Source: an uncultured Bacteroidales bacterium (GTDB lineage Bacteria; Bacteroidota; Bacteroidia; Bacteroidales; WCHB1-69). Taken from it: a stretch of DNA of 64,000 nucleotides. This document shows positions 21,162 through 63,631 of the stretch, piece by piece. The stretch is taken from assembly GCA_934699095.1 (NCBI GenBank), contig CAKUVI010000003.1:233076-297075 (forward strand). Direction: 5' to 3'. Position 1 is the stretch's first letter. Each line of letters begins with the position of its first letter. A program made the translations under genes and the position numbers. The notes under the pieces are model-generated. The model did not search any database and was not told the origin of the DNA. It was given only the letters and a program-made list of their open reading frames with translations.

Positions 21162-22658
21162 ATGAATACAGCAAAGAAATTATTTGGATTATTCGCCGTT
21201 GCAGCACTCTTGCTTAGCATGTCTGCCTGCAAAAAACAGAAATCGGCAACCACCGGCTGGAACTATAACGATGCCAAAAACGGTGGCTTTGAAGTAGCCC
21301 CATTTGAAGAACAAGCCACCGGTCCCGGCCTTGTCTTCATCGAAGGCGGATCTTTCGTGATGGGACAGATGGAAGAAGACGTGATGAAAGACTGGAACAA
21401 CACTCCTCGTCGCGTTTCTGTGGCTTCATTCTATATGGATGAATGCGAAGTGGCCAATGTCGATTATCTCGAATATCTCCATTGGCTCGAAAGAGTGTTC
21501 ATCCCTCAGGATTTGAAAGTCGTTTACGACAACGCCCTTCCTGATGAGAACGTTTGGCGCGACCGCCTCGGCTACAACGAGCCGGATGTAGAATACTACT
21601 TCCGCCACCCAGCCTACAGATACTATCCTGTAGTAGGCGTAAACTGGCTCCAGGCAACCAACTATGCAGCATGGCGTACAGACCGCGTAAACGAACAGAT
21701 TCTCGTTGACCGTGGCTATATCGAATTCGCCGAAACTCCTTCTGCAGAAGGTTACTTCAATACAGACGCTTACCTTACCTACGAATCATACGAGGCTGAA
21801 GGCCAAAAACGTCTTAGATACATCTCCAGCGGTGAATACCGTAATGTGAAAATGGAAGACGGTATCCTCCTTCCTAAATATCGTCTGCCCACCGAGGCTG
21901 AATGGGAATACGCTGCCTACAGCACTATAGGCAACACCCTCAACGAACGTGTCCTCGAACGTAAAGTTTACCCATGGAACGGTCAACAACTTCGTACCGA
22001 AGATAAAAAATACTATGGCGACTTCATGACCAACATGCGCCGCGGCCGCGGTGACCTCATGGGCGTTGCCGGACACCTCAACGACGGCGGCTTCAAAACA
22101 AAAGACGTCAAAACCGACTGGCCTAACGACTACGGCCTATACCACATGGCTGGTAATGTCGCTGAATGGGTTATGGACGTTTACAGACAAAGCTCTCACG
22201 ACGACGTTACCGAATTCAACCCGTTCCGTGGTAACTACTTCGAAACCAAAAAACTCCTCGAAGACGGTACCGTTGCCGAACGCGACAGCGTGGGTAAAAT
22301 CCCTATGGTTCCTGTCTCTGACTTCAAAAACGACAGAAGACGCAACTACCGCTCAGCCGACAACAAGAACTACCTCGATGGCGACTGGCAGTCACTGAAA
22401 AACATGGACGACTGGACTAACGCCACCACAAACACAGAAGCTACCGATATCATGTATGCCAAAACAGCAAACAACTATGACTTCTCACTTGTTAGCGACC
22501 ACGCTCGAGTTTACAAAGGCGGCTCTTGGAGAGATATCCCTTACTGGTCTTCTCCAGGCTCAAGACGCTACCTCGACGAGGATGAAGCAACCGACTATAT
22601 TGGCTTCCGCTGCGCTATGGCAAGAGTCGGAACACAAAGCCAAGGAAAAAGAAAATAA
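21162..22658 (+). CDS. gldJ: GldJ-like lipoprotein (GldJ/GldK-PorK family, FGE-sulfatase/SUMF1-type domain)
   Basis: 498 aa. Lipobox LLSMSAC, then TTGWNYNDAKNGGF...GLVFIEGGSFVMG...SFYMDECEVANVDYLEYLHWL. The N-terminus resembles GldJ more than GldK. Confidence 0.75.
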   Translation: MNTAKKLFGLFAVAALLLSMSACKKQKSATTGWNYNDAKNGGFEVAPFEEQATGPGLVFIEGGSFVMGQMEEDVMKDWNNTPRRVSVASFYMDECEVANVDYLEYLHWLERVFIPQDLKVVYDNALPDENVWRDRLGYNEPDVEYYFRHPAYRYYPVVGVNWLQATNYAAWRTDRVNEQILVDRGYIEFAETPSAEGYFNTDAYLTYESYEAEGQKRLRYISSGEYRNVKMEDGILLPKYRLPTEAEWEYAAYSTIGNTLNERVLERKVYPWNGQQLRTEDKKYYGDFMTNMRRGRGDLMGVAGHLNDGGFKTKDVKTDWPNDYGLYHMAGNVAEWVMDVYRQSSHDDVTEFNPFRGNYFETKKLLEDGTVAERDSVGKIPMVPVSDFKNDRRRNYRSADNKNYLDGDWQSLKNMDDWTNATTNTEATDIMYAKTANNYDFSLVSDHARVYKGGSWRDIPYWSSPGSRRYLDEDEATDYIGFRCAMARVGTQSQGKRK

Positions 22659-44523: not shown

Positions 44524-46800
44524 TTACTTAACGATGAACTTTTGGATATTGCTGCCATTTGTTGTATTCAAATGGAGGAAGTAAACACCCTTTGCAAAAT
44601 CGTTCACAGAAATTTGGTATTTCTGAACGCCACCGTCGTGGTTGATTTGTTCAGTATAAACTGTTCTGCCTGTAAGATCAACGATTTCAGCAGAAATTGT
44701 CTGAGCGTCAGCACTTACTTCAATTGTCATGTTTGTAACTGCCGGATTAGGATAGATGTTTACGTCAAAATCTTCAATATTGTTGATACCTGTGTTTTCG
44801 CCCCAATATTGGAATTCAAAACCAGTGCCTTGGTATTTGTTATCAGAAGCGAAGCGGATTTTGAATCTGCCTGTCTGAGCACCTGCAAGCATAACGGTAG
44901 GAACATCTGCAGTATAGTAGCTGACTGGGAGGTTATTGATATCATAGTGGGCGATAAGTTCGCGAGTTTGAGCGTTCTTATAATAGTAAATATCTACAAA
45001 ATCACCAGATTTAAGATCAAACTTATTGAAGGTATAGATGAGACGGTTTGTATATTTGAGGTTAAGATCATACTCACAAACGTTAGAAGCGCGGTATTCG
45101 TCATCGCTGATAGCGTTGTTTGGCTTGTCGGTGAGAATAGCGGTTTGGTCTGTAAGTGTCAAGTTTGTACAAGCGGCCTTGCTGAAGCTGTTAACTCTAT
45201 AGCTCAACACGAAGCCGTAATCGGTTTCAGAATTTGCAGTAGATGTGAAGACAACGAGAACGCTGTCAGCATTTACTGTAATGGCAGCAGGAAGTTGGTT
45301 GCCTGTGAAATCACCTTGTGTGCCACCATCGAGGTTAGTGTAATCGCTGCAAGCAGCCATAAGATAATTGCCGCTATACTCTTGTTTGATACCGGAAGCA
45401 GTTGTACCGCCGTTGTAGATTGTAACTTTGTCGCCGGCTTTAACTTTAAGTTTATCGAAGCTCAAAACATAAGATGTTGCATCCGGACAAGCGAGAATCC
45501 ATTGACGATTTGAGTTTTGGGCATATTTCATATTGCCTGCGCCATCGCTGATAGTACCGAAGCTTGCTGTAACGCGTTTGAAGCTTTCAGCTGGTTTAGC
45601 AATTGCTGCAGAATCAGGCATAAGGTTGATCATCATAGCGTTAGAGCCAGCCTCGTTGAATGTACCGGAGCTGTGGGTGTTCTGTTTGTTGATGAGATAC
45701 CAACCGTTATCTTGGCCAGCCCAACCCCAGTTAACATGGAAATAGGTAGCGTTACCGATAGTTGTGTAACCGTCAACGATCCATGCGTGACCGCCAGCAG
45801 AAGCACTGCGACCTGAGAAGAACAGAGGACGACGTGCATCCAATTCTGCTTTTGCCTTATTTTCCCACAAATACATCAATGAGTCGTTTGAAATAACATC
45901 GTTGATGTTTTGGAATTGAGAATTTGAATTGAAGAAGAAGTTATTTTGAAGAGCGGCCATAGCATATTCGGATTGAGTACCAGAGCCATCCCAGCCATAA
46001 CCCATACGTGTAGAAACACCGCAATGATAGATCAATTTTGAAAGCTCACCGTCATATTGGGTAAGTGAGTTTGCCATTGCATCATAGTCATAGTTGGATG
46101 CGCTGTAGTTAACAGTTTGTGCGGGATAAGTATAGATAACTTCACCTGTTTCATCATCATATTCACGTGGAATATAAGAAACGATACCATAACCGTTTTC
46201 AGGATAACGGTAATAGAAAAGGATATTGGTCATAGTGAGGGCCACACAACCAACAGGGGTGTGGAAATCGTCGTCGTATGAATTCTTTGGATTGTAAGGG
46301 CAGCTTGTGTTGTAATATTTTTCCTGAGTCCAGCGGGTTGTAACCAAAGGTTCAACTGCAGGAGCGCCCTTTGTTGAGAAAGGTTTGAAATCGCTTGCAA
46401 GGTAGTGGTTCCAGGAATTACGAACCTTGAGTGCACTTTCAGGGTTAGTAAGAAGTCTGGAGATGTCTTGCTTATACTGTTCTGTGTACAAGTCTGCGCC
46501 AGTACCTTTTGTGAAGTTGCTTTCCAAAGAGAAGGCCAATACAGGGTTAGCCAGATCTGTTGCAGAAACAATCATGAAGCCTTGGTTTCCAACCTTGAAT
46601 TGATAATAGACAGGAGTGCCGTCAACAGAATACTCGGTATTCACTAAAACGATCTCCATCTGGTTAGCTCTTGTAGCACCAACTCGTTCGGTGAGGAAGT
46701 TTTTAGATGCTTTCATTGCATCTTCCACGGGAATTACGTTAACTGCGTAACTCATCATGATAAACATCAGTAAAGATGCCAAAAGTGTAATTTTCTTCAT
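44524..46800 (-). CDS. C10 (streptopain-like) cysteine peptidase with two CUB-like domains and a T9SS C-terminal sorting domain
   Basis: 758 aa. Signal peptide and propeptide/inhibitor-like N-terminus. Catalytic Cys context PVGCVALTMTNILFYY; catalytic His context AGGHAWIVDGY. CTD is NIYPNPAVTNMTIEV...GVYFLHLNT...QKFIVK. Confidence 0.85.
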   Translation of the reverse strand: MKKITLLASLLMFIMMSYAVNVIPVEDAMKASKNFLTERVGATRANQMEIVLVNTEYSVDGTPVYYQFKVGNQGFMIVSATDLANPVLAFSLESNFTKGTGADLYTEQYKQDISRLLTNPESALKVRNSWNHYLASDFKPFSTKGAPAVEPLVTTRWTQEKYYNTSCPYNPKNSYDDDFHTPVGCVALTMTNILFYYRYPENGYGIVSYIPREYDDETGEVIYTYPAQTVNYSASNYDYDAMANSLTQYDGELSKLIYHCGVSTRMGYGWDGSGTQSEYAMAALQNNFFFNSNSQFQNINDVISNDSLMYLWENKAKAELDARRPLFFSGRSASAGGHAWIVDGYTTIGNATYFHVNWGWAGQDNGWYLINKQNTHSSGTFNEAGSNAMMINLMPDSAAIAKPAESFKRVTASFGTISDGAGNMKYAQNSNRQWILACPDATSYVLSFDKLKVKAGDKVTIYNGGTTASGIKQEYSGNYLMAACSDYTNLDGGTQGDFTGNQLPAAITVNADSVLVVFTSTANSETDYGFVLSYRVNSFSKAACTNLTLTDQTAILTDKPNNAISDDEYRASNVCEYDLNLKYTNRLIYTFNKFDLKSGDFVDIYYYKNAQTRELIAHYDINNLPVSYYTADVPTVMLAGAQTGRFKIRFASDNKYQGTGFEFQYWGENTGINNIEDFDVNIYPNPAVTNMTIEVSADAQTISAEIVDLTGRTVYTEQINHDGGVQKYQISVNDFAKGVYFLHLNTTNGSNIQKFIVK

Positions 46801-48969: not shown

Positions 48970-49482
48970 TTAAAAACGATATCTTACTCCGAAGGCGACA
49001 TTGAAAAGATTTGTGGCAAAATTGCCTTGTCTTAAACCGAAGACGTTTATCATAGGACGCCAATCAAGGCTCAAGTTGAGCGGAATATTGAATTTATACT
49101 CAAGTCCCAACTGTCCGCCAATGGGAATGCCGAAACGGCTGTAACCCATAAGGTCGTAATATTCTCCATAGCCGTAGCTGATGCCGGCGGCTACACCGAT
49201 ATACCACCCGAAACCATACTTGAGTTCACGCAGCCAGTCGTATGCCGCAACAGCCTGCAAACGACCGTAGCGATAGATCTCTGTCCCGGTTTTTGTATTC
49301 ACTATCCTATGGGTGATGAACGGAGTGACACCAAGATCCACTTCCAACATATTGCCGCCTAACAAGTGCTGGTAGGAAGCCTCAAGATTGTAGCCCACCC
49401 TCGCACCGATGGCTCTCGGCTGCGCGTTTAATGTGAACACCACGGCAGACATGACAAACAAAAAAACAATTGCTCTTTTCAT
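48970..49482 (-). CDS. Small outer-membrane beta-barrel protein
   Basis: 170 aa. Signal peptide ending NAQ|PRAIGARVGYN and C-terminal ...FGVRYRF. Confidence 0.6.
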   Translation of the reverse strand: MKRAIVFLFVMSAVVFTLNAQPRAIGARVGYNLEASYQHLLGGNMLEVDLGVTPFITHRIVNTKTGTEIYRYGRLQAVAAYDWLRELKYGFGWYIGVAAGISYGYGEYYDLMGYSRFGIPIGGQLGLEYKFNIPLNLSLDWRPMINVFGLRQGNFATNLFNVAFGVRYRF

Positions 49483-49586: not shown

Positions 49587-50087
49587 TTAGTGGAATCTGT
49601 AACGAAGACCAACACCGAAGCTATACAAACCAGCATATGGTCTGTAATAGGTGTTGTTGAATCCCAACACGTTAATCATTGGGCGCCAGTCGATTGTAAG
49701 GTTCAATGGAATGTTGAATTGCCATTCAAAACCGATCTGACCACCGATATTAACACGGAATGGAACAACATCATAATATCTGTAAGCAGAACCGAAACCG
49801 AAACCGATACCTGCACCAGGACCTACGAACCAATTCCAGATACCTTTGATATTGAATGTCCAGTCGAACATAGCGTTGATATCAGCATATCCCCAGTTGT
49901 AACCATTGTAATTTGACCACAAACCGGAAACACCTGCAGTGAGGTCGGTGTACAAATTAGAAGTGATAGAATGTTGATATGAGAATTCTTCATTCCAACC
50001 CAAACGGGCACCAATAGCGCGAGGTTGTGCGAAACCTGCAACGGCAAAAGCGCCGAGAATTACTAATGTAGTTAAAACTTTTTTCAT
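49587..50087 (-). CDS. Small outer-membrane beta-barrel protein (tandem paralog of 48970..49482)
   Basis: 166 aa. FAQ|PRAIGARLGWN..., shared motif FNIPLNL(T/S)(I/L)DWRPMINV, C-terminal GLRYRFH. Confidence 0.6.
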   Translation of the reverse strand: MKKVLTTLVILGAFAVAGFAQPRAIGARLGWNEEFSYQHSITSNLYTDLTAGVSGLWSNYNGYNWGYADINAMFDWTFNIKGIWNWFVGPGAGIGFGFGSAYRYYDVVPFRVNIGGQIGFEWQFNIPLNLTIDWRPMINVLGFNNTYYRPYAGLYSFGVGLRYRFH

Positions 50088-52426: not shown

Positions 52427-53962
52427 CTATGCCTTTATAAGTTTTTTGCTACACAGAAGTCCTTTCTTGTCGAAAATATTTATCAGATAAATCCCCTTGC
52501 TTAAAGATGATATGTCAACTGAGGCCTTTCCTGAATTCAGACTCTCTCCATACACACATTGTCCGTAAATATTCACAATTTCTATCTTATATTCCGACCT
52601 GAATTCGTCTAACTCTATATTGATATACTTGTCTGCCGGTATGGGATATACCTTGCAACTGCCAGATTCTACATTCTCGATGCCAACACAATCCTCAAAA
52701 ACCAGATTATCATAAGTATTCCAAACGGGAGCGGCCTGATATTCATCTATTTTCTCACATGGAACGCGCACAAGTATTGTGTCTTGCTTGTTGAAAGTTG
52801 TAGGGCTTATTGAAGGAGGTGTCTCGCAGAAAATATTCACTTCCTCCAATCCTCTTGCCAAGGAACTTCTAAAGGCACTATTACCAATATACTCGACCGT
52901 TTGCGGTATTGTGATTTTTTTCAACATCGGTGTCTCATAGAAAGCCAATTTTTCAATTCTCTTAAGATTTGAAGGCAATGAAACACTATCTAAGGATTCA
53001 CAATATGAAAAGCAATTTGAAGATATTGAATCTATACCGTCTGGCAGATCGATTTCTATGAGTCCTGTATTGCTAAAACAACGTGGCCCAACGCTAACAA
53101 GGTTGTCAGGCAAAACCATTGTTTTCAGATTGATGAAGTTCTGGAAGCAGTTTTTTCCTATCACAAGTGGTTCTGTACCTTGTTGGAACACAACATGACG
53201 GCACTCTATGGTGTCATCTAAATAATCGTATGTCAGTTGCTCAATGCTCACCAAAGATGGCGGGAACGCCAGAGTGTCTATGTGTTCGGGCGAAAAGGCA
53301 CATTCGTGGATTTCACGCAATCCGTCGTTGAACGCAATATCAGTCAACGGACAACTGTAAAAGGCCTGATATGGTAATATTGACACGCCAGCTGGTATAT
53401 TAACTTCTTTTATCCCAGAGGATGCAAAAGCCTGAACTCCTATGTGTGTCAGAGACTCTGGGAGCTCTATTGAAGAAAGGGGTATTTGTGAGAAGGCATA
53501 AAAATTGATGCGCTTCACATTGGATGACATCTCGATTTGATTTAACATAGAATGATGGAATGCTCCCGTATCGATAGTTTCTATTGTATTGGGAAGAACA
53601 ACATGTTGAAGGTTCTTTTGCATATAGAAAGCCTCTTTGTCTATGGCGGTCACAGTGAAAGTTTGACCTTCAAACTCAACTGTAGAAGGAATTACCACAT
53701 AGGAGTCATAATCATACAATGGATATACGAAGCCGGATTGTCCCATTTCCCAAGGCATTGTAGGGAAGGGAAGGTTGTGATACACGGAATCGTGGCAACG
53801 TGTTACGGCCACTGTCGGTGTTGTTGTTGAAGTAATACGATAATATAAAGTATCACCTTCAACATTAGCAGATTTGAAATCAAATGAAGGCCACAGATTT
53901 TGCGCCGAAACAGCATAAACACTTGCAACGATAATGCTGATAATGATGACTGTTTTTTTCAT
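52427..53962 (-). CDS. BspA-type leucine-rich-repeat surface protein with a T9SS C-terminal sorting domain
   Basis: 511 aa. Signal peptide and repeated (I/L)xIPxxVxxIgxxAFxxC units. CTD-like tail is KVYPIPADKYINIEL...GIYLINIFD...KKLIKA. Confidence 0.8.
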   Translation of the reverse strand: MKKTVIIISIIVASVYAVSAQNLWPSFDFKSANVEGDTLYYRITSTTTPTVAVTRCHDSVYHNLPFPTMPWEMGQSGFVYPLYDYDSYVVIPSTVEFEGQTFTVTAIDKEAFYMQKNLQHVVLPNTIETIDTGAFHHSMLNQIEMSSNVKRINFYAFSQIPLSSIELPESLTHIGVQAFASSGIKEVNIPAGVSILPYQAFYSCPLTDIAFNDGLREIHECAFSPEHIDTLAFPPSLVSIEQLTYDYLDDTIECRHVVFQQGTEPLVIGKNCFQNFINLKTMVLPDNLVSVGPRCFSNTGLIEIDLPDGIDSISSNCFSYCESLDSVSLPSNLKRIEKLAFYETPMLKKITIPQTVEYIGNSAFRSSLARGLEEVNIFCETPPSISPTTFNKQDTILVRVPCEKIDEYQAAPVWNTYDNLVFEDCVGIENVESGSCKVYPIPADKYINIELDEFRSEYKIEIVNIYGQCVYGESLNSGKASVDISSLSKGIYLINIFDKKGLLCSKKLIKA

Positions 53963-54052: not shown

Positions 54053-55750
54053 TTATTTTTTAATGATTTTCTGATGATAAATGACACCGTTGAGGTCCGT
54101 CACGCGCAGAATATACACCCCTGCGGGGATATTTTGCATTGTTATTACCGTGGTTACGCCATGTTGAAACGCGCCATGTAGAGACGCAAAATTTTGCGTC
54201 TCTACAACCCGACCCTGCAAATCGCACAGCGTGATGGCCGCAATTTGTGCGCCGTCGGTTATTCCCACGTTCAATTCTCCGTCCGTCGGGTTCGGGTACA
54301 CATACAATACTGCATTATCTGCGTTGTTTATTGCAGTCTTCGCGGATTTTGTGCCTCCTTGTGGTTCCTCCGCTGACAAGTCCCCGTCCTCCAGACAGAT
54401 GCCGTGGTAGAAACAGAGCACGCCCTTGGCCATCTCCGAGGCGCGGCCGCTGTTGCGCTCGGCTATCTCCTGCAGCTCCGACTTCTGCGCCTCCGTCATG
54501 TCGCGCCAGTTCACCATCCTGCCGTCCCTGAGCTGCGCCTTCATGGCATGGAACTGAGCGTAGTCGGCGTCCCCGCCTTCGACATCGTCAACCAACCCCA
54601 TCTGGAAGTCGGTCTCCGTCAGCGAGTACCTGTCGGCGATGGGCTGCGCCACGGTGTGCCACTGCTGCAGCGCCCCGAGGTCCAGCACCGTGTCGGCCAT
54701 GATGCCCCGCACCGCCGCGTAATACACCTCCGTCTGCAGAGCCTGATGACCGTCAGCCACGGCGGAGTTCGTTTGGTTCGCACCCGCCGCGTTCACCGGG
54801 AACGGGTGTCCCGGAAATCCCGGCGTAATCCCGCACAACGTTGACGCACAGTTGTTTATAGTCACGTTGTCGGTGCTCTTCATCGTGGCGCCGCCTGTCA
54901 GGTATATGGGGTTGGCCACATTGCCGAAGCTGCCGCAGGCCACCTGAAGCCCGCCATCCGCCCCGCCGTTGTCGCCGCGCACCTGAACCCCGTAGTTCAG
55001 CGTGCTGAAGCTGTTGCGGTATATCATGTTGTCGGCGCTGCCGGAGTTATTCACCATGACACCAGTGGTGCTGCCCACGTTTGCCATCACCAGACCCTTG
55101 AAGAGGTTGCCCTCGACCTTGTAGCCAGAGCAGTTGTTGAGGTACAGGCCCGTGACGAACGGCGGCTGTGAACACGACTGCGTCAGGTCGAAAGTGTCGC
55201 GCGTCACGGTCACGAAGTTGTTGCCGTTGATACGCACGGCCGTGCCGTTGCCGCTGAACTTAGTCTGGTCTATCTCTATCGCGTACTGGTTGCCGCTCGT
55301 GTTGGCCTCTATCGCAGTGTTGAACCCGCTGAACGTGTTGTACCGCGAGTAGCTCTCCGCGCACACGCAGCCGGTGAACACTATGTTCGAAGGGCAGGTC
55401 TTGGTGAGAGTGAAGCCCGCGTCCTGCGCGTATATGCCCCTGTGGGTGGTGAACCCGCCGGCTGTGGCGTCGCTGAAGCCGCTCAGGTTGCCGCGGACGC
55501 TCCCGCCGGGCATCGTCTCAACGTACGGCATGAAGTTCACGGCGCGGCCGTTGTTGCGGAAGGCGGTGTTGGTGGCCTTCACCACGGCACCCGCCTCGGC
55601 CTGCACGGCGCAGCGGGCGTTCTCTATCAGGGCGCCGTTCTTGAGCTCAAGCCAGCCCTGGTTGGCGGCGTTCTGCGAAAGGCCGCCGTTGCCGAGCACC
55701 TGCACACCCTGCCACATCTCGCCCGCACACGCTCGTGAGTGTTCCGCCAT
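54053..55750 (-). CDS. Tail fragment (beta-helix repeats, helical linker, T9SS CTD) of the frameshifted S8 peptidase gene
   Basis: From ACAGEMWQG onward, the 565-aa ORF is residue-for-residue identical to the C-terminal part of ORF 58275..61289. The exceptions are a 39-aa gap and the last 21 or so residues. It has no signal peptide of its own. Confidence 0.7.
   Translation of the reverse strand: MAEHSRACAGEMWQGVQVLGNGGLSQNAANQGWLELKNGALIENARCAVQAEAGAVVKATNTAFRNNGRAVNFMPYVETMPGGSVRGNLSGFSDATAGGFTTHRGIYAQDAGFTLTKTCPSNIVFTGCVCAESYSRYNTFSGFNTAIEANTSGNQYAIEIDQTKFSGNGTAVRINGNNFVTVTRDTFDLTQSCSQPPFVTGLYLNNCSGYKVEGNLFKGLVMANVGSTTGVMVNNSGSADNMIYRNSFSTLNYGVQVRGDNGGADGGLQVACGSFGNVANPIYLTGGATMKSTDNVTINNCASTLCGITPGFPGHPFPVNAAGANQTNSAVADGHQALQTEVYYAAVRGIMADTVLDLGALQQWHTVAQPIADRYSLTETDFQMGLVDDVEGGDADYAQFHAMKAQLRDGRMVNWRDMTEAQKSELQEIAERNSGRASEMAKGVLCFYHGICLEDGDLSAEEPQGGTKSAKTAINNADNAVLYVYPNPTDGELNVGITDGAQIAAITLCDLQGRVVETQNFASLHGAFQHGVTTVITMQNIPAGVYILRVTDLNGVIYHQKIIKK
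54097..55732. repeat. Direct repeat copy 1 (1636 bp) of the GC-rich tail module
   Basis: Matches 58319..60071 at a constant offset of 4222 nt, then 4339 nt after the indel. I found only one mismatch (54117 A vs 58339 G) and a 117-bp gap. Confidence 0.9.
54177..54206. repeat. 30-nt perfect palindrome inside the CTD coding sequence (copy 1)
   Basis: TGTAGAGACGCAAAATTTTGCGTCTCTACA is fully self-complementary. It encodes ...VETQNFASL... on the minus strand. Confidence 0.9.
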
Positions 55751-57803
55751 CGACGATGAGCTTGCCCCCGGGACGGACGACGAGACGGGCGTTGTCAGTG
55801 CAATGGATTGTGGAAGTGATGGTTAGGACAGCACCTGAATCAATAGTGACCACATTTCCTAAAGAACGCTCAATGTCCCACAAGACATTGGAAGTAATGA
55901 CCGTATCTTGGTTGGTGACAGGGTATATTCCCGTGCCCGATGAGGCGATCGGATATATTTCTTTCTCCCTGATCACATATCCGTCATAGCAGATTTTCAC
56001 CTTGATTCTGTTTCCTGTGGCCGGGTACAGGGGACGCACGACCAACGAACCGGTTCCTTGTCCGGATACAATGCTCAAATGCAGGTTGGTCTCCCAAACA
56101 ATTTCATAACCTTCCGGCACAGCGCCTGAAAGCGTGTATGTATATTCATTGCATAACTGCATGGATGACGGTCCGGAAATGGTGTATTCTGTACCGTAAA
56201 TTTTAGCTTCTGCCAAAGCGTGGAATGCATTCACCAGCCCGTAGCCCATTTCCTCATTCCATCTGCCATTGGGGTGAAGGACGGCATCGCTGATGGTATA
56301 GTTATAAGGCCCGACTTTCTGAGCCGTTTTTTCAATAATCTCCTTGACCTGGCTATGGGTCAGGTTGGGGTTGACGGAAAGGATGAGCGCCGCCACGCCT
56401 GCTACGTGTGGACATGCCGCGGATGTGCCGCTGAATAGGGTGTAATTCCCATCCGTTTTTCCTGATGTTCCCATACGGTCTGTCGTATAGACATTTGTTC
56501 CTGGTGCAACAACGCTTAAATCTGATCCATAAGAACTGGCATCATCATTGATGTCAGACGGCCATGGATCGCACGTCTCCACAATGTTGCTTTTCCCTGC
56601 TCTGTTTCCGCATCTGTCAACCGCTCCCACAGCGATGACGCCTGTCCGTGTCGCGGGATATTGCATCTGACTTCCATTATTTCCAGAAGACACTGTTATA
56701 ACGCAGCCCTTGCCTGCTCTGCCTTGCTCCAACGCACTGTCAAATGCCTGATTAATCAGGTCACTTTCCGGCTTACTCCACGATATGCTGAGAATTTGTG
56801 CGCTATATTTCTTCCATGCGGTTTCTATGGCCTTTTTAATTCGCCAATAGCTAAATGTAATGTTGTGTGCATCTCTGGTCACTCTTATGGGAACAATCAG
56901 CGAGTTAGGGGCTATCCCTGCGATTCCCAAACTGTTGTGACTTGCTGCAATAATGCCGGCACAAGCCTGCCCGTGCCATTGTTTGCCCAGGTTTGGTGAT
57001 CCGTTTCCGTACAATTCGGGAAAACCGTGCAAGACTCTGCTTGTACCTAAGGCATTTCTCAAATCTTCGTGATCTTCCACCCCGTTGTCAATGACTGCAA
57101 CTCTGATACTGTCACCAATACTGTTATTGTAATGCTGTAAAAACGCCCACGCTTTTTCAACTTTAATATCGACACCGGGAGTTCCATTTTCCTGCCCGGT
57201 GTTCTCCAATGCCCATTGTAGATCATACCGTGGGTCTATTGTGTTGAGGCTGCATTCCCCGTAAAAATCCGGTGTGGAATAATCCACATACAGGGTGTCG
57301 TACAAGCCGTTAGCAATTTGCATCAAGGAAGTCTCACTGTTGCATACGATTCTATAGACATTTTCTGCGGTATCGTATTGCAGCGTGTAATTGCTGAATT
57401 GCGACAAGAAAGGGACAAGGAAGGAAGTATAAAAACTGTCGCTTTTGAGACGTACATACACCTCGTTCCTAAGCCATATCCGTCGCCCGCTCACCTTTTT
57501 GGCGTAGGTTATGAATGAGATGTCAGAAGAATTGTTGCATATTGTCGGTATAAGTTGCCTAATGGGAATTGTCCTGAGTTTTTCACTGATAATGATGATA
57601 TTGTCGTCGTCTTTCACAAAACTCACGGTGTCTGTTTTGTCTGAAAACATTTCCAAAATTCTATCCACAATCATGTCGTATTGCTCCAAATCTGCCACGA
57701 TGATGTTGACCGAAGTGGAGTCCTCTCGCCAGTAATTTCTTTCCTTGTCCGCAAAATAATAGTTTGTCTGCGCTTGACAAAAATGGAACAGGCACGAGAA
57801 CAC
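55647..57803 (-). CDS. S8 (subtilisin) family serine peptidase head, reading frame broken near 55733
   Basis: Catalytic triad contexts VAVIDNGVEDHEDL (Asp), HGQACAGIIAA (His) and SGTSAACPHVAGVAALI (Ser). The last 30 or so codons are out-of-frame reading of the tail module. The ORF-track start is a GTG. Confidence 0.8.
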   Translation of the reverse strand: MFSCLFHFCQAQTNYYFADKERNYWREDSTSVNIIVADLEQYDMIVDRILEMFSDKTDTVSFVKDDDNIIIISEKLRTIPIRQLIPTICNNSSDISFITYAKKVSGRRIWLRNEVYVRLKSDSFYTSFLVPFLSQFSNYTLQYDTAENVYRIVCNSETSLMQIANGLYDTLYVDYSTPDFYGECSLNTIDPRYDLQWALENTGQENGTPGVDIKVEKAWAFLQHYNNSIGDSIRVAVIDNGVEDHEDLRNALGTSRVLHGFPELYGNGSPNLGKQWHGQACAGIIAASHNSLGIAGIAPNSLIVPIRVTRDAHNITFSYWRIKKAIETAWKKYSAQILSISWSKPESDLINQAFDSALEQGRAGKGCVITVSSGNNGSQMQYPATRTGVIAVGAVDRCGNRAGKSNIVETCDPWPSDINDDASSYGSDLSVVAPGTNVYTTDRMGTSGKTDGNYTLFSGTSAACPHVAGVAALILSVNPNLTHSQVKEIIEKTAQKVGPYNYTISDAVLHPNGRWNEEMGYGLVNAFHALAEAKIYGTEYTISGPSSMQLCNEYTYTLSGAVPEGYEIVWETNLHLSIVSGQGTGSLVVRPLYPATGNRIKVKICYDGYVIREKEIYPIASSGTGIYPVTNQDTVITSNVLWDIERSLGNVVTIDSGAVLTITSTIHCTDNARLVVRPGGKLIVDGGTLTSVCGRDVAGCAGARQRRPFAERRQPGLA

Positions 57804-57829
57804 GGCTATTGTAATTAATCTTTTCGTGA

Positions 57830-58213
57830 TTACCTTTTTTCTATACAGTCTATTTTAACGAAACTAGGACGTAAATGATTGGGGTTGGGCAAGGGATCAA
57901 CCCATAGGTCGAAATGTGGAATCTTAGTGTATGACGCCATGATATCCAATGTGTCATAAACTTGATACTCTTTTGGCAGTTTGCCGACCACCTCAAACTT
58001 GTAATTGTTCAAGTGTTCAACAATCAGATGGGCTATCACCTTATATTGTTTTCCTTCGCAGTACAGGCACGTGGTTTTATAAGGCTCTTTTAAATATACC
58101 AGTTTGCAGGGAGTCATATAGTAGGGATCGCAACTTTGCTGTTTGCATGACGAGAGTCCCATTCCTGACACTATTATCGCTATTGTCAGTAAAATTCCAA
58201 TTTTTCTTTTCAT
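57830..58213 (-). CDS. Cys-rich lipoprotein, function unknown
   Basis: Start set to the ATG at 58211-58213: MKRKIGILLTIAIIVSGMGLSSC (lipobox). The 127-aa precursor has six Cys after the lipobox Cys. Confidence 0.5.
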   Translation of the reverse strand: MKRKIGILLTIAIIVSGMGLSSCKQQSCDPYYMTPCKLVYLKEPYKTTCLYCEGKQYKVIAHLIVEHLNNYKFEVVGKLPKEYQVYDTLDIMASYTKIPHFDLWVDPLPNPNHLRPSFVKIDCIEKR

Positions 58214-58274
58214 AATCTTGATTTTTGTTCTGATGTTTTGCTTGCAAAAATACATTTTTCAAAAACGCAGCCCA

Positions 58275-61200
58275 CTATTTCTTCACCACTCTTCTCACGT
58301 ATTCCTTTCCATCCCAGCCCGTCACGCGCAGAATATACGCCCCTGCGGGGATATTTTGCATTGTTATTACCGTGGTTACGCCATGTTGAAACGCGCCATG
58401 TAGAGACGCAAAATTTTGCGTCTCTACAACCCGACCCTGCAAATCGCACAGCGTGATGGCCGCAATTTGTGCGCCGTCGGTTATTCCCACGTTCAATTCT
58501 CCGTCCGTCGGGTTCGGGTACACATACAATACTGCATTATCTGCGTTGTTTATTGCAGTCTTCGCGGATTTTGTGCCTCCTTGTGGTTCCTCCGCTGACA
58601 AGTCCCCGTCCTCCAGACAGATGCCGTGGTAGAAACAGAGCACGCCCTTGGCCATCTCCGAGGCGCGGCCGCTGTTGCGCTCGGCTATCTCCTGCAGCTC
58701 CGACTTCTGCGCCTCCGTCATGTCGCGCCAGTTCACCATCCTGCCGTCCCTGAGCTGCGCCTTCATGGCATGGAACTGAGCGTAGTCGGCGTCCCCGCCT
58801 TCGACATCGTCAACCAACCCCATCTGGAAGTCGGTCTCCGTCAGCGAGTACCTGTCGGCGATGGGCTGCGCCACGGTGTGCCACTGCTGCAGCGCCCCGA
58901 GGTCCAGCACCGTGTCGGCCATGATGCCCCGCACCGCCGCGTAATACACCTCCGTCTGCAGAGCCTGATGACCGTCAGCCACGGCGGAGTTCGTTTGGTT
59001 CGCACCCGCCGCGTTCACCGGGAACGGGTGTCCCGGAAATCCCGGCGTAATCCCGCACAACGTTGACGCACAGTTGTTTATAGTCACGTTGTCGGTGCTC
59101 TTCATCGTGGCGCCGCCTGTCAGGTATATGGGGTTGGCCACATTGCCGAAGCTGCCGCAGGCCACCTGAAGCCCGCCATCCGCCCCGCCGTTGTCGCCGC
59201 GCACCTGAACCCCGTAGTTCAGCGTGCTGAAGCTGTTGCGGTATATCATGTTGTCGGCGCTGCCGGAGTTATTCACCATGACACCAGTGGTGCTGCCCAC
59301 GTTTGCCATCACCAGACCCTTGAAGAGGTTGCCCTCGACCTTGTAGCCAGAGCAGTTGTTGAGGTACAGGCCCGTGACGAACGGCGGCTGTGAACACGAC
59401 TGCGTCAGGTCGAAAGTGTCGCGCGTCACGGTCACGAAGTTGTTGCCGTTGATACGCACGGCCGTGCCGTTGCCGCTGAACTTAGTCTGGTCTATCTCTA
59501 TCGCGTACTGGTTGCCGCTCGTGTTGGCCTCTATCGCAGTGTTGAACCCGCTGAACGTGTTGTACCGCGAGTAGCTCTCCGCGCACACGCAGCCGGTGAA
59601 CACTATGTTCGAAGGGCAGGTCTTGGTGAGAGTGAAGCCCGCGTCCTGCGCGTATATGCCCCTGTGGGTGGTGAACCCGCCGGCTGTGGCGTCGCTGAAG
59701 CCGCAGCTGTGGAACTCTATCCCGTTGACCTCGCTCATCCTCACATGCTCCGTGAACTCGCAGCCGTTCTCGGCGAAAAGGTTGTCGCCGTCGGTCGTGA
59801 ACGTGCAGTTGCCGAAGCCGCTCAGGTTGCCGCGGACGCTCCCGCCGGGCATCGTCTCAACGTACGGCATGAAGTTCACGGCGCGGCCGTTGTTGCGGAA
59901 GGCGGTGTTGGTGGCCTTCACCACGGCACCCGCCTCGGCCTGCACGGCGCAGCGGGCGTTCTCTATCAGGGCGCCGTTCTTGAGCTCAAGCCAGCCCTGG
60001 TTGGCGGCGTTCTGCGAAAGGCCGCCGTTGCCGAGCACCTGCACACCCTGCCACATCTCGCCCGCACACGCACCGGTCAATGTGCCGCCGTCAACAACCA
60101 ACCTGCCGCCGGGGCGGACGACGAGACGGGTGCCGGGAGCGCAATGCAACGTACCTGTTATCGTCATTGTTTTCCCGTTTTCTATACAGAACGTGTCGGT
60201 AGTGAGATTTGTTTCCACATCAATGACCATGGACTGGCCTTGGATGGTAGTGCCTTCCACCTCGGGAAGCAGACTGCTATAAAAAACGTGAATAGGGCAA
60301 TGCAGGGTGTCATTGTGCTCCAATGTTGAGACCACGACACTGACGACAGCATCGCCTTCGGACAAGGGGGCGACATTTACGACGTTCGGATTGTTTGTGG
60401 GAAGAATTTGGATGTTGTCGCTGCCTAACCATGTCACCGTGGCATTGGTACCCTGCGGAAGATGGAGGGCATATGTTGGGTGTGTGCACAAATGTATATC
60501 GCGTGGGCCTTGAATGTAAGTTTCAATTTCGTTAAGCAAATAATCCACCAAATCATTATCAAAAGTGATGTGTTCCATGTTCTTGTTGAGCGGCCCCCAA
60601 TAGGAATCAAAGGGAATCTTGCCTTCGGCCACTAAATCCCGATTCGACACGTCTGTGGCATAGGGAATAGGCTCCTTGATGTCCAAAACACTGGTGATGG
60701 GCATGAAACAATGGGAGTGTTGATTGATATTGATACTGATAATTCCAAGATATTGCATCCATGAAATCTTATCGGTTAGCATATCAAATGTAGGATACGT
60801 GCATCCTGGGGCAGCATCTATACAGCCCTTATTCCCATTGTTATTAAAAGTCCACGTGATAGGAATTTTTATAAATAAGCCTATGTGACGATTAAGGTTA
60901 AAAACGACCCCTGGTCCTTGACTTGTCATATTATGAATTGAAATGTTGAGCAAATATGGAATCACAAACAATCGGGTTCTTATTGCTATATCCAAAACGT
61001 TTTGTTCAGCATATCCGTTAGGAAGGTTATTTAAACTACCGTTCGAGACAGCCACCTTTCTTAAGGCGGATGGATAGTTTAGACCGGCAATTTGCTGATA
61101 GTATGCGTTGTAAAGCGAACCTGCTTCGCTCATTTTGTGATAGATTAGCATCTGTTTTGCTGCAACGCTGCATAAAGTTTTGTTCCAAAGTTTAATCACA

Positions 61201-61289
61201 GGAGGAATTGGATACTTTCGAAAATAATCCACCATGGCTTGTGCTCCCATGGAAATATTAGCGCCTTGATGGGGGGAGTCAAACGACAC
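58275..61289 (-). CDS. Downstream part of an alpha/beta-hydrolase / Ig-like / beta-helix / T9SS-CTD cargo gene
   Basis: 1004-aa ORF in the same frame as 61290..62564, separated from it only by a TGA. The ORF-track 'M' is a GTG. It begins SFDSPHQGANI and ends with a T9SS CTD (YVYPNPTDGELNV...GAYILRV...VVKK). Confidence 0.75.
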   Translation of the reverse strand: MSFDSPHQGANISMGAQAMVDYFRKYPIPPVIKLWNKTLCSVAAKQMLIYHKMSEAGSLYNAYYQQIAGLNYPSALRKVAVSNGSLNNLPNGYAEQNVLDIAIRTRLFVIPYLLNISIHNMTSQGPGVVFNLNRHIGLFIKIPITWTFNNNGNKGCIDAAPGCTYPTFDMLTDKISWMQYLGIISININQHSHCFMPITSVLDIKEPIPYATDVSNRDLVAEGKIPFDSYWGPLNKNMEHITFDNDLVDYLLNEIETYIQGPRDIHLCTHPTYALHLPQGTNATVTWLGSDNIQILPTNNPNVVNVAPLSEGDAVVSVVVSTLEHNDTLHCPIHVFYSSLLPEVEGTTIQGQSMVIDVETNLTTDTFCIENGKTMTITGTLHCAPGTRLVVRPGGRLVVDGGTLTGACAGEMWQGVQVLGNGGLSQNAANQGWLELKNGALIENARCAVQAEAGAVVKATNTAFRNNGRAVNFMPYVETMPGGSVRGNLSGFGNCTFTTDGDNLFAENGCEFTEHVRMSEVNGIEFHSCGFSDATAGGFTTHRGIYAQDAGFTLTKTCPSNIVFTGCVCAESYSRYNTFSGFNTAIEANTSGNQYAIEIDQTKFSGNGTAVRINGNNFVTVTRDTFDLTQSCSQPPFVTGLYLNNCSGYKVEGNLFKGLVMANVGSTTGVMVNNSGSADNMIYRNSFSTLNYGVQVRGDNGGADGGLQVACGSFGNVANPIYLTGGATMKSTDNVTINNCASTLCGITPGFPGHPFPVNAAGANQTNSAVADGHQALQTEVYYAAVRGIMADTVLDLGALQQWHTVAQPIADRYSLTETDFQMGLVDDVEGGDADYAQFHAMKAQLRDGRMVNWRDMTEAQKSELQEIAERNSGRASEMAKGVLCFYHGICLEDGDLSAEEPQGGTKSAKTAINNADNAVLYVYPNPTDGELNVGITDGAQIAAITLCDLQGRVVETQNFASLHGAFQHGVTTVITMQNIPAGAYILRVTGWDGKEYVRRVVKK
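58319..60071. repeat. Direct repeat copy 2 (1753 bp) of the GC-rich tail module
   Basis: See copy 1. It contains the extra 117 bp (59705..59821) bounded by GAAGCCGC at 59697-59704 and 59814-59821. Confidence 0.9.
58399..58428. repeat. 30-nt perfect palindrome inside the CTD coding sequence (copy 2)
   Basis: Same sequence as 54177..54206. Confidence 0.9.
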
Positions 61290-62564
61290 TCATAACCTGC
61301 AGTTGTGTTTGCCATAGTTGGTGCGGACATCATCCGCATGTTGTTCCATGTAGGCCAAAGCGTAACGAGTGATTTGCCCTCCCATGCTGGGACCTACCAC
61401 CACAATCTGTTCTTTGCTTCCAGATTGTTGTAGCAGTTCGTTTACCTTATTGATAGCGGCAATGCACACCATCGCATTCTCTTCGATGTATGTGCCGCCA
61501 TTGGGAAAATCCAACAACACCACGTCATAGCCTAATGCCAATAACATATCACCCATATTATCGCCATCTGAGAGACCATCCCCTAATTTGTCCCAAAGAG
61601 ACTTTCCGTTCTTCTCATAACAGGTGTCAAAACGTCTGTTGTTCACTGGGTCGAACCCATCAACAATCAATACTGGTTTTCTCAACAACATGTCAGAATG
61701 GGCATAATATATACGGATGTCCCCCCGGCGTGCTGTAAAACTTCCCCCGGCCGAATATGGATAGGCTGGTATGATTTGCCCATTAACGGTTAGGTCTTGA
61801 ATGTATGAATGAGAACTTGTCCCTGATCCCCCATTTCTACTGTTTCTGTCAATTGTGAGTTTGGCGTATGTGGTCAGGGTATCTCCATTGCGGAATATTG
61901 ACGTCATTTTCAATGTTTTTGTTCCTTCTGAGGCATAGACAATCTGGACGGCGGTGTTCAACGCCACATTTCTGTCCCCTTGACCGTCTCCGAAGTCAAT
62001 CACCAAATAACTGACAGGGTTTGTTGTATTGTCAAAAAAGAAATGTCGGTCAATGACAAATCTGACGGAGGTAGAAGTTGAATATTCAACCAACGGTGCC
62101 ATCATAAAAGCAGTGTTTTCATGGAATAAGGAGACGTTTATGGAAGTGTTCTCCCTAAGGACGCTGTCCGCATCGTAGTAAAGTCGTTGTTGCATGGCAA
62201 TGGTGTCGAATGTATTGAAGTTGGCGTGCAACATGCCGATTATGATCGTTGTGCTGTCGGAAGGCAGATTTCTTATTATGCTTCCCACCGAATCGGGAAG
62301 GAACGTGTTTTGCGCCCCTGCGCGGTAAAGTTCGTCGTATGCCATAACGAACTGCCAGTAGTCGCAGGTGTCTGCTGGATGGGGGATGTCTGTTATGTAA
62401 CTGACCAAATTGCTGAACGGTAGTACCCGCTCATACAATATCCCCGTTGAGGTGTGGCTCAAGTCCACGTGCCGGAATACTTCGTTGAAACTCTCGGTGT
62501 AATTCTGCGCAGAAGCTGTTGTAAACACACTGATAACCAAAAGGGTGATAAGGTGCTTTTTCAT
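61290..62564 (-). CDS. Upstream part of the same cargo gene: signal peptide plus alpha/beta-hydrolase (lipase/esterase-like) nucleophile region
   Basis: MKKHLITLLVISVFTTASAQ signal peptide and GxSxG nucleophile elbow VVVGPSMGGQ. It ends at an in-frame TGA at 61290-61292. Confidence 0.75.
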   Translation of the reverse strand: MKKHLITLLVISVFTTASAQNYTESFNEVFRHVDLSHTSTGILYERVLPFSNLVSYITDIPHPADTCDYWQFVMAYDELYRAGAQNTFLPDSVGSIIRNLPSDSTTIIIGMLHANFNTFDTIAMQQRLYYDADSVLRENTSINVSLFHENTAFMMAPLVEYSTSTSVRFVIDRHFFFDNTTNPVSYLVIDFGDGQGDRNVALNTAVQIVYASEGTKTLKMTSIFRNGDTLTTYAKLTIDRNSRNGGSGTSSHSYIQDLTVNGQIIPAYPYSAGGSFTARRGDIRIYYAHSDMLLRKPVLIVDGFDPVNNRRFDTCYEKNGKSLWDKLGDGLSDGDNMGDMLLALGYDVVLLDFPNGGTYIEENAMVCIAAINKVNELLQQSGSKEQIVVVGPSMGGQITRYALAYMEQHADDVRTNYGKHNCRL

Positions 62565-62577
62565 AATTCATTGTATT
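62437..62577. repeat. 141-bp leader/signal-peptide module, copy A
   Basis: Identical to 63173..63313 (offset 736) except for a 27-nt central patch with 12 mismatches. It covers 13 nt of the 5' leader, the start codon, the signal peptide and the first mature residues. Confidence 0.85.
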
Positions 62578-62583
62578 ATGTCA

Positions 62584-63300
62584 TTAATTCTTTTTGCCAA
62601 AATGGTAACGGACGGAAAACACAAACCCGTAATCAAAATAATGGTAAGGATTATTAGAGGAAATGAGGCCTATTCTATTTCCTGGATTCACGCCGTCTGC
62701 TGAATAAATGTTTCCATATCCAAGTCGCGTATCGGTTTGAATAGACATCGGTATCGCATTAAAGAAGTATTCGATACCCAATATGGCCTGAACTCCACTT
62801 TTTAATGAGACTTCACGTTTCCCTGCATCGTGTGGGACTATTCCTCCAACAACTCCTCCACCAGCAATCCAATATGTGTTCGATCTATTTGGAAATTTGT
62901 CTTCAAACAACATATTTACTTTTAATCCGATGTCGCACCCTTCAGGTATTATTGATTTGTGGATGTCAATACCTAGGCCGAAATCCACTTGCAAATGTAT
63001 CTCACGTAATATATTGAACTTCAAAGAGAGACCATCAAACCATATACCAGCACATACTCCCACACTATGCTTGTAGTATTGCGTGTCAGCGGTGTCTGTC
63101 TTACTTACCACTTTGTTGTTCACCCAAGAGCAGTTTGTCGGCAGGTCTTCAGGCGGTAAGTCACGTTCAGATAATATCCCCGTTGAGGTGTGGCTCAAGT
63201 CCACGTGCCGGAACACGCTGTCGAAGGCCTGTGTGTAGCTCTGCGCAGAAGCTGTTGTAAACACACTGATAACCAAAAGGGTGATAAGGTGCTTTTTCAT
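62584..63300 (-). CDS. Small outer-membrane beta-barrel-like protein carrying the duplicated leader of the hydrolase gene
   Basis: 238 aa. The first 45 or so residues (MKKHLITLLVISVFTTASAQ...FRHVDLSHTSTGIL) match ORF 61290..62564. The remainder is Gly/aromatic-rich and ends FVFSVRYHF. Confidence 0.6.
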   Translation of the reverse strand: MKKHLITLLVISVFTTASAQSYTQAFDSVFRHVDLSHTSTGILSERDLPPEDLPTNCSWVNNKVVSKTDTADTQYYKHSVGVCAGIWFDGLSLKFNILREIHLQVDFGLGIDIHKSIIPEGCDIGLKVNMLFEDKFPNRSNTYWIAGGGVVGGIVPHDAGKREVSLKSGVQAILGIEYFFNAIPMSIQTDTRLGYGNIYSADGVNPGNRIGLISSNNPYHYFDYGFVFSVRYHFGKKN

Positions 63301-63313
63301 AATTCATTGTATT
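63173..63313. repeat. 141-bp leader/signal-peptide module, copy B
   Basis: See copy A. Confidence 0.85.
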
Positions 63314-63631
63314 TTATCATCATGTGGACTTCTATTTTTTTACTTCTTTACATTGCCGCCGCCCTTGGTGCGAAGTCCGATTAACATCAAGTTAAGCAAA
63401 CAGCACTGCAAAATTATACATTTTTTTTACCATTTCACCACTTTTTATTCATATTCCTTCCCCTTCTCATCCGCAGCGGTTTGGCTTTTCACAGACGCGT
63501 TGATTCGCGCCTGAACAGGATGGCAGTATTTATTAAGCGCCCTGCCTCAGCGCCTTATCTGAAATAGTTATTCTTATTTAATAGATGTATATGTCTCATA
63601 TTGTTTTAACTTTCAATTATCCCAACAATTA

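Follow-up and report, generated by a model that had tools for sequence, protein, structure and literature searches.

The window analysed here, a 64,000-nucleotide stretch of contig CAKUVI010000003.1 from an uncultured human-gut Bacteroidales bacterium, contains two tandem genes, A and B, that combine unrelated catalytic heads with a long and almost identical tail ending in a type IX secretion system (T9SS) sorting domain. All genes of the locus lie on the minus strand, with a small lipoprotein gene between B and A and a gene for a 238-aa protein upstream of B (Table 1). The head of gene A matches the S8 subtilase profile PF00082 at 156 bits (cut-off 21.8) over profile positions 1–288 of 288, and its translation contains the triad motifs AVIDNGV, HGQACAG and GTSAACPH. 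The N-terminal open reading frame (ORF) of gene B scores marginally with the PGAP1-like profile PF07819 (25.4 bits, cut-off 24.3) and contains the GPSMGG motif, the assignment to this hydrolase family being backed by homologues at 59–66% identity. Both tails end in a T9SS type-A C-terminal domain (CTD) detected by TIGR04183 (42.6 in A, 35.0 in B, cut-off 23) and by PF18962 (38.4 and 31.3, cut-off 27). An S8 head, an alpha/beta-hydrolase head and a T9SS sorting domain, as read from the letters alone in an earlier note on this DNA, are therefore all supported by profile scores above cut-off.

Table 1. Features of the locus and of the surrounding window, with positions in the window.
Feature	Position	Strand	Remarks
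Gene A head ORF, 718 aa: S8 subtilase and immunoglobulin (Ig)-like linker	55647..57803	-	Enters the tail in the wrong frame, with its stop at 55647
Gene A tail ORF, 565 aa from an internal ATG, without signal peptide	54053..55750	-	Identical tract 54097-55732; CTD ~54056-54304
Gene A frameshift site	55733..55737	-	2 bases fewer than copies B/C: CAC--GA vs GACCGGT / GACCAGT
Gene B N-terminal ORF, 424 aa: signal peptide, N-terminal domain, first half of PGAP1-like alpha/beta hydrolase	61290..62564	-	GPSMGG nucleophile elbow; ends at TGA
Gene B second half of hydrolase head and linker region	60147..61289	-	In frame with the upstream ORF
Gene B tail: beta-helix ~360 aa, disordered linker, helical bundle, T9SS type-A CTD ~58278-58526	58275..60146	-	Identical tract 58319-60071
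Small lipoprotein gene, 141 aa (127 aa from second ATG), lipobox GLSSC	57830..58255	-	Ends 26 nt upstream of the S8 head
28-nt perfect palindrome GTAGAGACGCAAAATTTTGCGTCTCTAC, encodes VETQNFASL	58400..58427		In the CTD coding sequence of B
28-nt palindrome GTAGAGACGCAAAATTTTGCGTCTCTAC	54178..54205		In the CTD coding sequence of A
Upstream gene, 238 aa, N-terminus in common with gene B	62584..63300	-	
Second, smaller repeat: gene B 5' end (20 nt upstream, signal peptide, ~35 codons)	62418..62584	-	88% identical to 63154-63320 of the 238-aa gene
BspA-type leucine-rich-repeat protein with CTD, further T9SS cargo gene	52427-53962		Directly downstream of gene A
758-aa protein with CTD, further T9SS cargo gene	44524-46800		
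PorV	14645-15892		473 bits, above cut-off
PorU sortase	16071-19907		1188 bits, above cut-off
PorP/SprF family protein	20056-21135		190 bits, above cut-off
GldJ	21162-22658		473 bits, above cut-off

Using blastn and global alignment, we found that on the plus strand 54097–55482 equals 58319–59704 at 1385 of 1386 bases, the sole substitution being 54117 A versus 58339 G (read on the coding strand as GTG for Val and GCG for Ala), and that 55483–55732 equals 59822–60071 at 250 of 250. Between these two blocks copy B has 117 extra bases (39 codons, 59705–59821) that are absent from copy A, exactly the direct repeats with one mismatch and one 117-bp indel that had been described at 54097..55732 and 58319..60071. 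Direct repeats GCGGCTTC bound the 117-bp segment, which codes for a part conserved in the tail-family consensus, and copy A therefore carries the derived deletion. The identical tract ends within coding sequence on both sides: 5' of it, 89 nt (55717–55805 versus 60058–60146) are 71% identical between A and B, in agreement with the low-identity homology noted there before, and at the 3' end the two tails diverge again, as had also been seen, over ~15 codons.

Neither gene reads from signal peptide to CTD in one ORF, a continuity that fails for A and B and holds for a third gene, C, at another locus (L002, below) and for gene A's orthologue in a related species (L075/L076), an unbroken ORF of ~1394 aa that includes a signal peptide. 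The recorded gene calls on these two WILK20 scaffolds (942 and 953 aa) begin in the middle of the S8 domain; the sequence itself is open over ~1394 aa with a good signal peptide at its start, so that the short calls are gene-table truncations that leave the sequence unaffected. In gene A, two bases are missing at the head/tail edge, directly upstream of the first identical base (55732), and therefore the head ORF stops 33 codons into the tail, head and tail ORFs occupying different frames. The lone canonical start of gene A is a GTG that leaves a 12-residue pre-sequence (a truncated signal peptide); upstream of it a full signal-peptide-like sequence, RKKVITKRLITIAVFSCLFHFCQAQ, is encoded without ATG, GTG or TTG, and the orthologue carries ATG AAA AAG at the equivalent start position.

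Gene B is split by an in-frame TGA at 61290–61292 that separates its first 424 codons from the remaining 1004. The lesion is a TGG>TGA change inside the hydrolase fold, at a position occupied by Trp in 18 of 18 homologues (HNCRLW[VI]SFDSPHQGANI), and the homologues that are not cut by contig ends are single proteins of 687–1396 aa. Genome-wide recoding of TGA to Trp was rejected, gene B being the only real gene of the window with an in-frame TGA, against 193 TGG codons. TGA is unusually rare among the stops of the 40 long ORFs of the window (TAA 27, TAG 12, TGA 1). The 718-aa ORF with its frameshift was found exactly on 13–14 contigs from three assemblers and the exact TGA-terminated 424-aa product on 9 + 4 contigs; these contigs, from metaSPAdes, MEGAHIT and a third scaffold set, show the lesions to be fixed population-wide and not to be sequencing noise. 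Given the frameshift in A and the nonsense codon at an invariant Trp in B, the two T9SS cargo genes described in the earlier note are apparently not working ones, and both are probably pseudogenes.

A cluster look-up placed the third copy, gene C (P0090, 1205 aa, intact), at locus L002 of the same cohort, in flanks of 42% GC. It encodes a signal peptide and a different S8 head, 35% identical to head A, and its tail is 98.6% identical to that of B over 1798 nt, equals the A/B tails of L001 over the first 1676 nt, carries the 117 bp and at its 3' end resembles A. Tails behind an S8 head (A), a lipase head (B) and a second S8 head (C) thus share at least 99% nucleotide identity over 1.64–1.8 kb. 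The tract is thus dispersed, reaching beyond genes A and B.

Without the CTD, the tail matches 3404 cluster representatives (469 at E ≤ 1e-30), nearly always in the C-terminal half of proteins of 700–1700 aa. Among 38 sampled members, the heads included S8 (21), M4 (3), C1 (2), metallophosphatase (2), PGAP1 lipase (1) and sortilin-like (1) classes, and 35 of the 38 had a T9SS CTD; the variable-head, constant-tail arrangement suggested for the pair therefore holds family-wide. Each member combines a signal peptide with an enzymatic head that varies and a tail of ~600–630 aa that is conserved, and A and B are two tandem members of this large Bacteroidales T9SS cargo family. In species-representative genomes, the family occurs in uncultured gut and rumen Bacteroidales, often at 2–4 loci per metagenome-assembled genome (MAG), with many contigs ending inside the tail, a signature of intragenomic repeats.

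The AlphaFold2 (AF2) model of the tail (predicted local distance difference test score, pLDDT, 72) has a right-handed beta-helix at residues 1–360, a disordered linker, a helical bundle at 398–515 and a CTD sandwich at 548–631, matching the beta-helix-like tail with a helical part that the earlier note had recognized. Residues 1–360 are all beta, with block pLDDT mostly 75–95. Foldseek related this part to the tailspikes 6nw9, 2vbm and HK620, to polygalacturonases and to NosD (E down to 4e-4, template-modelling score, TM, 0.26–0.35), and the CTD part to the CTDs of RemA, NucA and mirolase (TMt 0.7–0.8). By sequence, Pfam Beta_helix matched 2 of 38 homologues and the best PDB match of the tail was the mirolase CTD (8qb1, E = 0.035). 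Most likely, the tail is a stalk, adhesin or anchor that would display the head on the cell surface after PorU/PorV processing.

Heads and tails differ in history, since the gene A orthologue at L075/L076 is 67% identical in its head and 40% in its tail and tails within the species are at least 99% identical. Similarly, P0036, related to gene C by its head, shows 79% identity there and 40% in the tail; three tails in RGIG7251 are 85–89% identical with heads at 26–35%, two tails in Tb.RUG.192 are 90.7% identical with unrelated heads, and other MAGs have more than one tail lineage each. Paralogous tails within a genome are thus closer than orthologues between species, and this closeness is confined to the tract, the pattern expected of concerted evolution by gene conversion. 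Moreover, the locus varies among close relatives. Strain L078 (~95% identical) has a fourth S8 head at the gene B site, joined to a B-type 3' end through a tail with an in-frame internal deletion, and its gene A has a 3.0-kb deletion, at a microhomology of 6 nt, that joins head residue 66 directly onto the helical domain; in L077, 78 nt of AT-rich sequence take the place of the interior of the gene C tail. That the repeats could drive deletion and rearrangement, as had been foreseen, is in keeping with these variants in strains ~95–96% identical, and the further decay and head replacement indicate that the shared tail is also a substrate for rearrangement.

The smaller repeat at the 5' end of gene B shows paralogue-templated change at work in the locus, as does the confinement of all inter-assembly differences over 10.8 kb to repeats. 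In assembly L066, the 12 differences at 62478–62503 all equal the 238-aa paralogue, and the patch is flanked by shared stretches of 76 and 41 nt; since a single 77-mer joins it to B-specific sequence, this paralogue-templated change cannot be a graph artefact, and it indicates what is probably a short gene-conversion tract. The 238-aa gene and gene B are both missing from the orthologous locus L075/L076, where the order is orf116, lipoprotein, S8-tail, so that they were either inserted in the lineage of the window or lost in the other.

Tails are 58–67% GC, against 44% for the window. The GC content at third codon positions (GC3) is 0.86 in the tail (58680–60170; 0.84 at four-fold sites) and lower, 0.60, in the CTD part, compared to 0.50–0.52 in the heads and 0.51–0.55 in housekeeping genes. 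When we aligned 40 loci from other gut and rumen Bacteroidales of many species on the EMWQG motif, mean GC3 rose from 0.30–0.49 in the head to 0.77–0.82 in the bin 25 codons before the motif, and past this step it stayed at 0.63–0.82 up to the stop codon; in nine distant environmental relatives the rise is small. Because tails are ~40% identical between species, with synonymous sites saturated, the high GC3 must be upheld by a continuing process. Translational selection was considered and rejected: ribosomal protein and EF-Ts genes of L076 reach a GC3 of 0.72–0.75 but avoid NNG codons (GGG 0, GCG 0.10, TCG 0.04), which the tails use freely (0.20, 0.39 and 0.27 respectively). With C- and G-ending codons used alike in tails, the bias looks compositional, and the most economical idea is a recombination-associated GC bias among multi-copy tails. 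The module-delimited GC3 step would offer a natural test for such bias in bacteria. Ile in the tail of the window (58680–60170, 54300–55732) is encoded by ATA in 12 of 16 codons and by ATC in the tails of other species. The plus-strand ORFs within the tails (146–228 aa) are regarded as by-products of high GC.

Our preferred reading is that paralogous tails, three or more of them, in a large and modular family of T9SS cargo proteins underwent recent gene conversion, at a locus that is decaying, and we put its probability at about 0.7. Non-reciprocal homologous recombination among the tails would have acted recently, atop old paralogy. Gene A has lost 2 nt at the 5' edge of the converted tract and, in frame, the 117 bp of a beta-helix rung, and it has no canonical start for the full signal peptide; close strains show further decay and head replacement at the same site. 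Of the earlier proposal, recent conversion or unequal crossing-over within an older paralogue pair, the old family and the recent near-identity stand; the two mechanisms are inseparable here. Several points weigh against the reading as stated. Conversion is not told apart from a recent duplication or an ectopic crossover that brought in gene B together with the 238-aa gene, and the pseudogene status of A and B is deduced from their sequences. UGA is the leakiest stop codon, and some read-through of gene B is possible, TGA being rare as a stop here. Within each assembly, A and B (and C where seen) carry one set of interior variants, which changes from assembly to assembly, so the true inter-copy identity may be nearer 99% than 99.94%, and the pairing of each head with its 3' end rests on graph heuristics.

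The last points lead to the question of how far the assembled identity can be trusted. The traceable colinear contigs (233–341 kb, ≤0.4% differences) come from Hadza gut metagenomes and were built by metaSPAdes with k ≤ 77 from 2 × 140-bp reads with ~350-bp inserts; no read pair spans the repeat, and the interior of a 1.4–1.7-kb repeat therefore cannot be phased in such data, nor can its deep identity be checked from reads if the sequence of the window is of like origin. Collapse in a short-read de Bruijn graph could produce the near-perfect identity and possibly the two-copy arrangement too, the copies differing more in reality or a single chromosomal tail existing alongside a separate 4.2-kb loop, circle or array. 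Over 10.8–15.7 kb, all inter-assembly differences fall in repeats and the unique sequence is invariant (9 kb of it in the flank), as such collapse would predict with short reads, k ≤ 77 and co-varying A/B interior variants. A 9-site variable patch at 55001–55104 is mirrored at 59223–59326, with three further small clusters in the tails, and its alternative allele is the sequence of copy C; a diversity-generating retroelement can be discarded for it, the changes being mostly at third codon positions and not adenine-specific, and the alternative allele being copy C. Co-varying variants of this kind fit true concerted evolution or graph-edge collapse, the latter at least as likely for the deep interior. 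MEGAHIT contigs, moreover, break in the repeat, one of them (L069, 4233 nt) closes a 4222-nt loop, and several contigs start beside variable sites (for instance 58751/58747 near 58752), suggesting that both alleles coexist in a sample. Nonetheless, the repeat is real in the assembly graphs, where four contigs of MEGAHIT (k = 141) reach exactly 141 nt into the tract before ending, and within read reach of unique sequence three assemblers agree on three head–tail junctions, the 2-nt and 117-bp indels and three distinct 3' ends. These boundary features are reproduced in >10 samples, a 4.2-kb circle of lipoprotein gene, S8 head and tail would have no replication function, and tandem or multi-copy tails with contig breaks occur in many other MAGs. 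Even when all variant sites are counted as inter-copy differences, identity stays above 99%. We therefore regard an assembly artefact as unlikely.

Very unlikely, in our view, is that a GC-rich block from a high-GC donor was recently inserted into, or replaced, the three tails. The tail composition (58–67% versus 44% GC, GC3 0.86 versus ~0.5), a codon usage unlike that of local housekeeping genes (r = 0.48) with a preference for ATA as Ile codon, and the lack of nearly the whole block in L077 and L078, with end points near the tract ends, would suit such a transfer. But no donor was found, the nearest non-self tail being 51–58% identical; GC richness begins ~70–90 nt upstream of the tract, where A, B and C differ; and L077 and L078 keep 63–77 nt of the 5' end of the block, as expected of deletions and not of empty sites. 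The GC3 step across 40 loci, from ~0.34–0.49 to ~0.8 within 25 codons of EMWQG, makes high GC3 an equilibrium property of the module, and a one-off horizontal transfer correspondingly improbable. We give the least credence to the idea that broken A and B are kept as silent donors or acceptors from which heads or tail variants are swapped through the shared tail into an expressed locus, comparable to pilS or vls cassettes or to orphan toxin cassettes of contact-dependent inhibition (CDI) and Rhs loci. A and B are inactive and yet their tails are open frames identical to intact gene C, a ~95%-identical strain has a different S8 head in place of the lipase head upstream of a B-type 3' end, and locus polymorphism is entirely paralogue-templated. 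Recent inactivation or conversion, though, would leave the tails just as intact, the lesions are of ordinary kinds (2 nt deleted, a nonsense codon, microhomology deletions), relatives L077 and L078 show progressive deletion instead of maintenance, and evidence for an invertase, recombinase or promoter switch is lacking.

The CTD coding sequences of A and B contain a 28-nt perfect palindrome, also present in the CTD of copy C (L002 5422) and in further copies (L004 7444, L009 2301, L076 8121, L079–L203). The identity of copy C with A/B breaks off 4 nt downstream of the palindrome, inside which the L077 variant resumes. Within the tail family, it is found in frame in the linker that follows the beta-helix or, in L075/L076, in the intergenic segment upstream of the lipoprotein gene; the exact 28 nt also occur in loci of other species with unrelated flanks. 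We found it in at least 120 metagenome contigs (28–60% GC, many habitats) and 5 viral contigs, with no flank consensus and with 62 of 137 occurrences in open frames. Eleven occurrences lie inside or next to ~190-aa HUH proteins (MPNHVHGI ... FGPQSKNLASIIRGFKIGVTK ... YIxNNP) and several more inside other T9SS CTDs. The HUH proteins match NCBIfam REP_Tyr_transpos NF047646 over most of the model (E 1e-11 to 1e-18), below its 80-bit cut-off. No Rfam family matched the palindrome and a literature search found no paper containing the sequence.

Repetitive extragenic palindromic (REP) elements with REP-associated tyrosine transposases (RAYTs) are known, as are Rickettsia palindromic elements inserted in frame in genes. 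The 28-nt palindrome resembles the former in being multi-copy, with unrelated flanks and tied to HUH proteins, and the latter in being often translated in frame. It is much shorter than the Rickettsia elements, differs from REP/RAYT systems in having copies within RAYT-like coding sequence itself, and differs from both in its exact conservation across contigs of 28–60% GC from many habitats. Judged from its distribution, it behaves as a dispersed REP-like element able to sit in frame within coding sequence, which gives a lead of its own on selfish DNA inside genes. Beyond conversion as such, the tails might form a within-genome recombination network, in which heads are exchanged, copies homogenized and broken copies serve as reservoirs, with palindromes marking or promoting tract ends and the GC3 step as the footprint of long-term GC-biased conversion; we consider this extension conceivable but doubtful. 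If true, bacteria would here offer an unusually strong case of biased gene conversion, delimited by a module. Of all the findings, the GC3 step across the family and the REP-like palindrome lying in frame most merit further study.

Oral relatives already provide cases in which one module was copied between unrelated genes for enzymes. In the closest of them, Tannerella forsythia has six clustered T9SS proteases of several classes, the KLIKK proteases, whose C-terminal extension and CTD are nearly identical, the shared part being a 30-aa motif and an 86-aa CTD around a variable region; each gene follows a small lipoprotein ORF (118–152 aa), which terminates at the protease start or just short of it and encodes a specific inhibitor, a potempin, and the loci were first mis-assembled through their repeats (PMC4404884, PMC9890683). 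Genes A, B and C likewise encode enzymes of different classes (S8, lipase, second S8) with a tail in common at at least 99% identity, and the 127/141-aa lipobox ORF of the window occupies a potempin-like position, ending 26 nt before the S8 head. The C-termini QKIIKK (A, C) and RRVVKK (B) resemble KLIKK without ending in it, and by sequence the mirolase CTD matches at only E = 0.035. In contrast to KLIKK, the module here is ~600–630 aa and comprises beta-helix, helical bundle and CTD, the heads include a lipase and, family-wide, phosphatases, both genes in the window are probable pseudogenes, the GC3 step is strong, and no potempin sequence similarity was detected. In Porphyromonas gingivalis, rgpA, kgp and hagA carry identical C-terminal adhesin (HA/CAD) repeats across T9SS cargo genes, attributed to recombination and gene conversion, with domain rearrangements among strains, and these repeats defeat automated short-read assembly (PMC5266723). 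Identical C-terminal repeats common to different T9SS cargo genes are the point of likeness; those repeats are cleaved adhesin domains and not a beta-helix, their heads are mutually related and the genes are functional.

CDI and Rhs polymorphic toxin loci also combine constant and variable modules, with a shared recombination handle and promoterless or truncated orphan cassettes. The modular design, the shared sequence as handle and truncated copies beside full genes recall our locus, but in those systems the N-terminus is constant and the C-terminal toxin variable, immunity genes are present and other secretion systems are used. What is unusual here is the GC-rich signature. Bacteroidota of the gut, rumen and mouth have T9SS cargo proteins as their main effectors, both surface-bound and secreted, and a ~600-aa display module copied and homogenized among unrelated hydrolase genes, if confirmed, would explain how their surface enzyme repertoire is assembled and reshuffled and why such loci break or mislead short-read MAG assemblies. 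KLIKK- and gingipain-type behaviour would then be shared by a family of thousands of representatives and no longer be peculiar to two oral pathogens.

Lipobox ORFs also precede the head in ~10 other family loci, ending ≤ ~35 nt from the head start or overlapping the head by a few bases. The lipoprotein of the window had only four homologues and no sequence match in the PDB, solved potempins included, and its AF2 model was unusable (pLDDT 38); homology to potempins found no support in these searches. By analogy of position, the lipoprotein–protease pairs are candidates for new inhibitor–protease systems. The presence of PorU, PorV, PorP/SprF and GldJ within the window, ~32 kb from the locus, indicates that the organism has a T9SS. 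Finally, two adjacent small genes (48970–49482, 170 aa; 49587–50087, 166 aa) have in common the motif AQPRAIGAR.G.N.E.SYQH after the signal peptide and look like another local paralogue pair.

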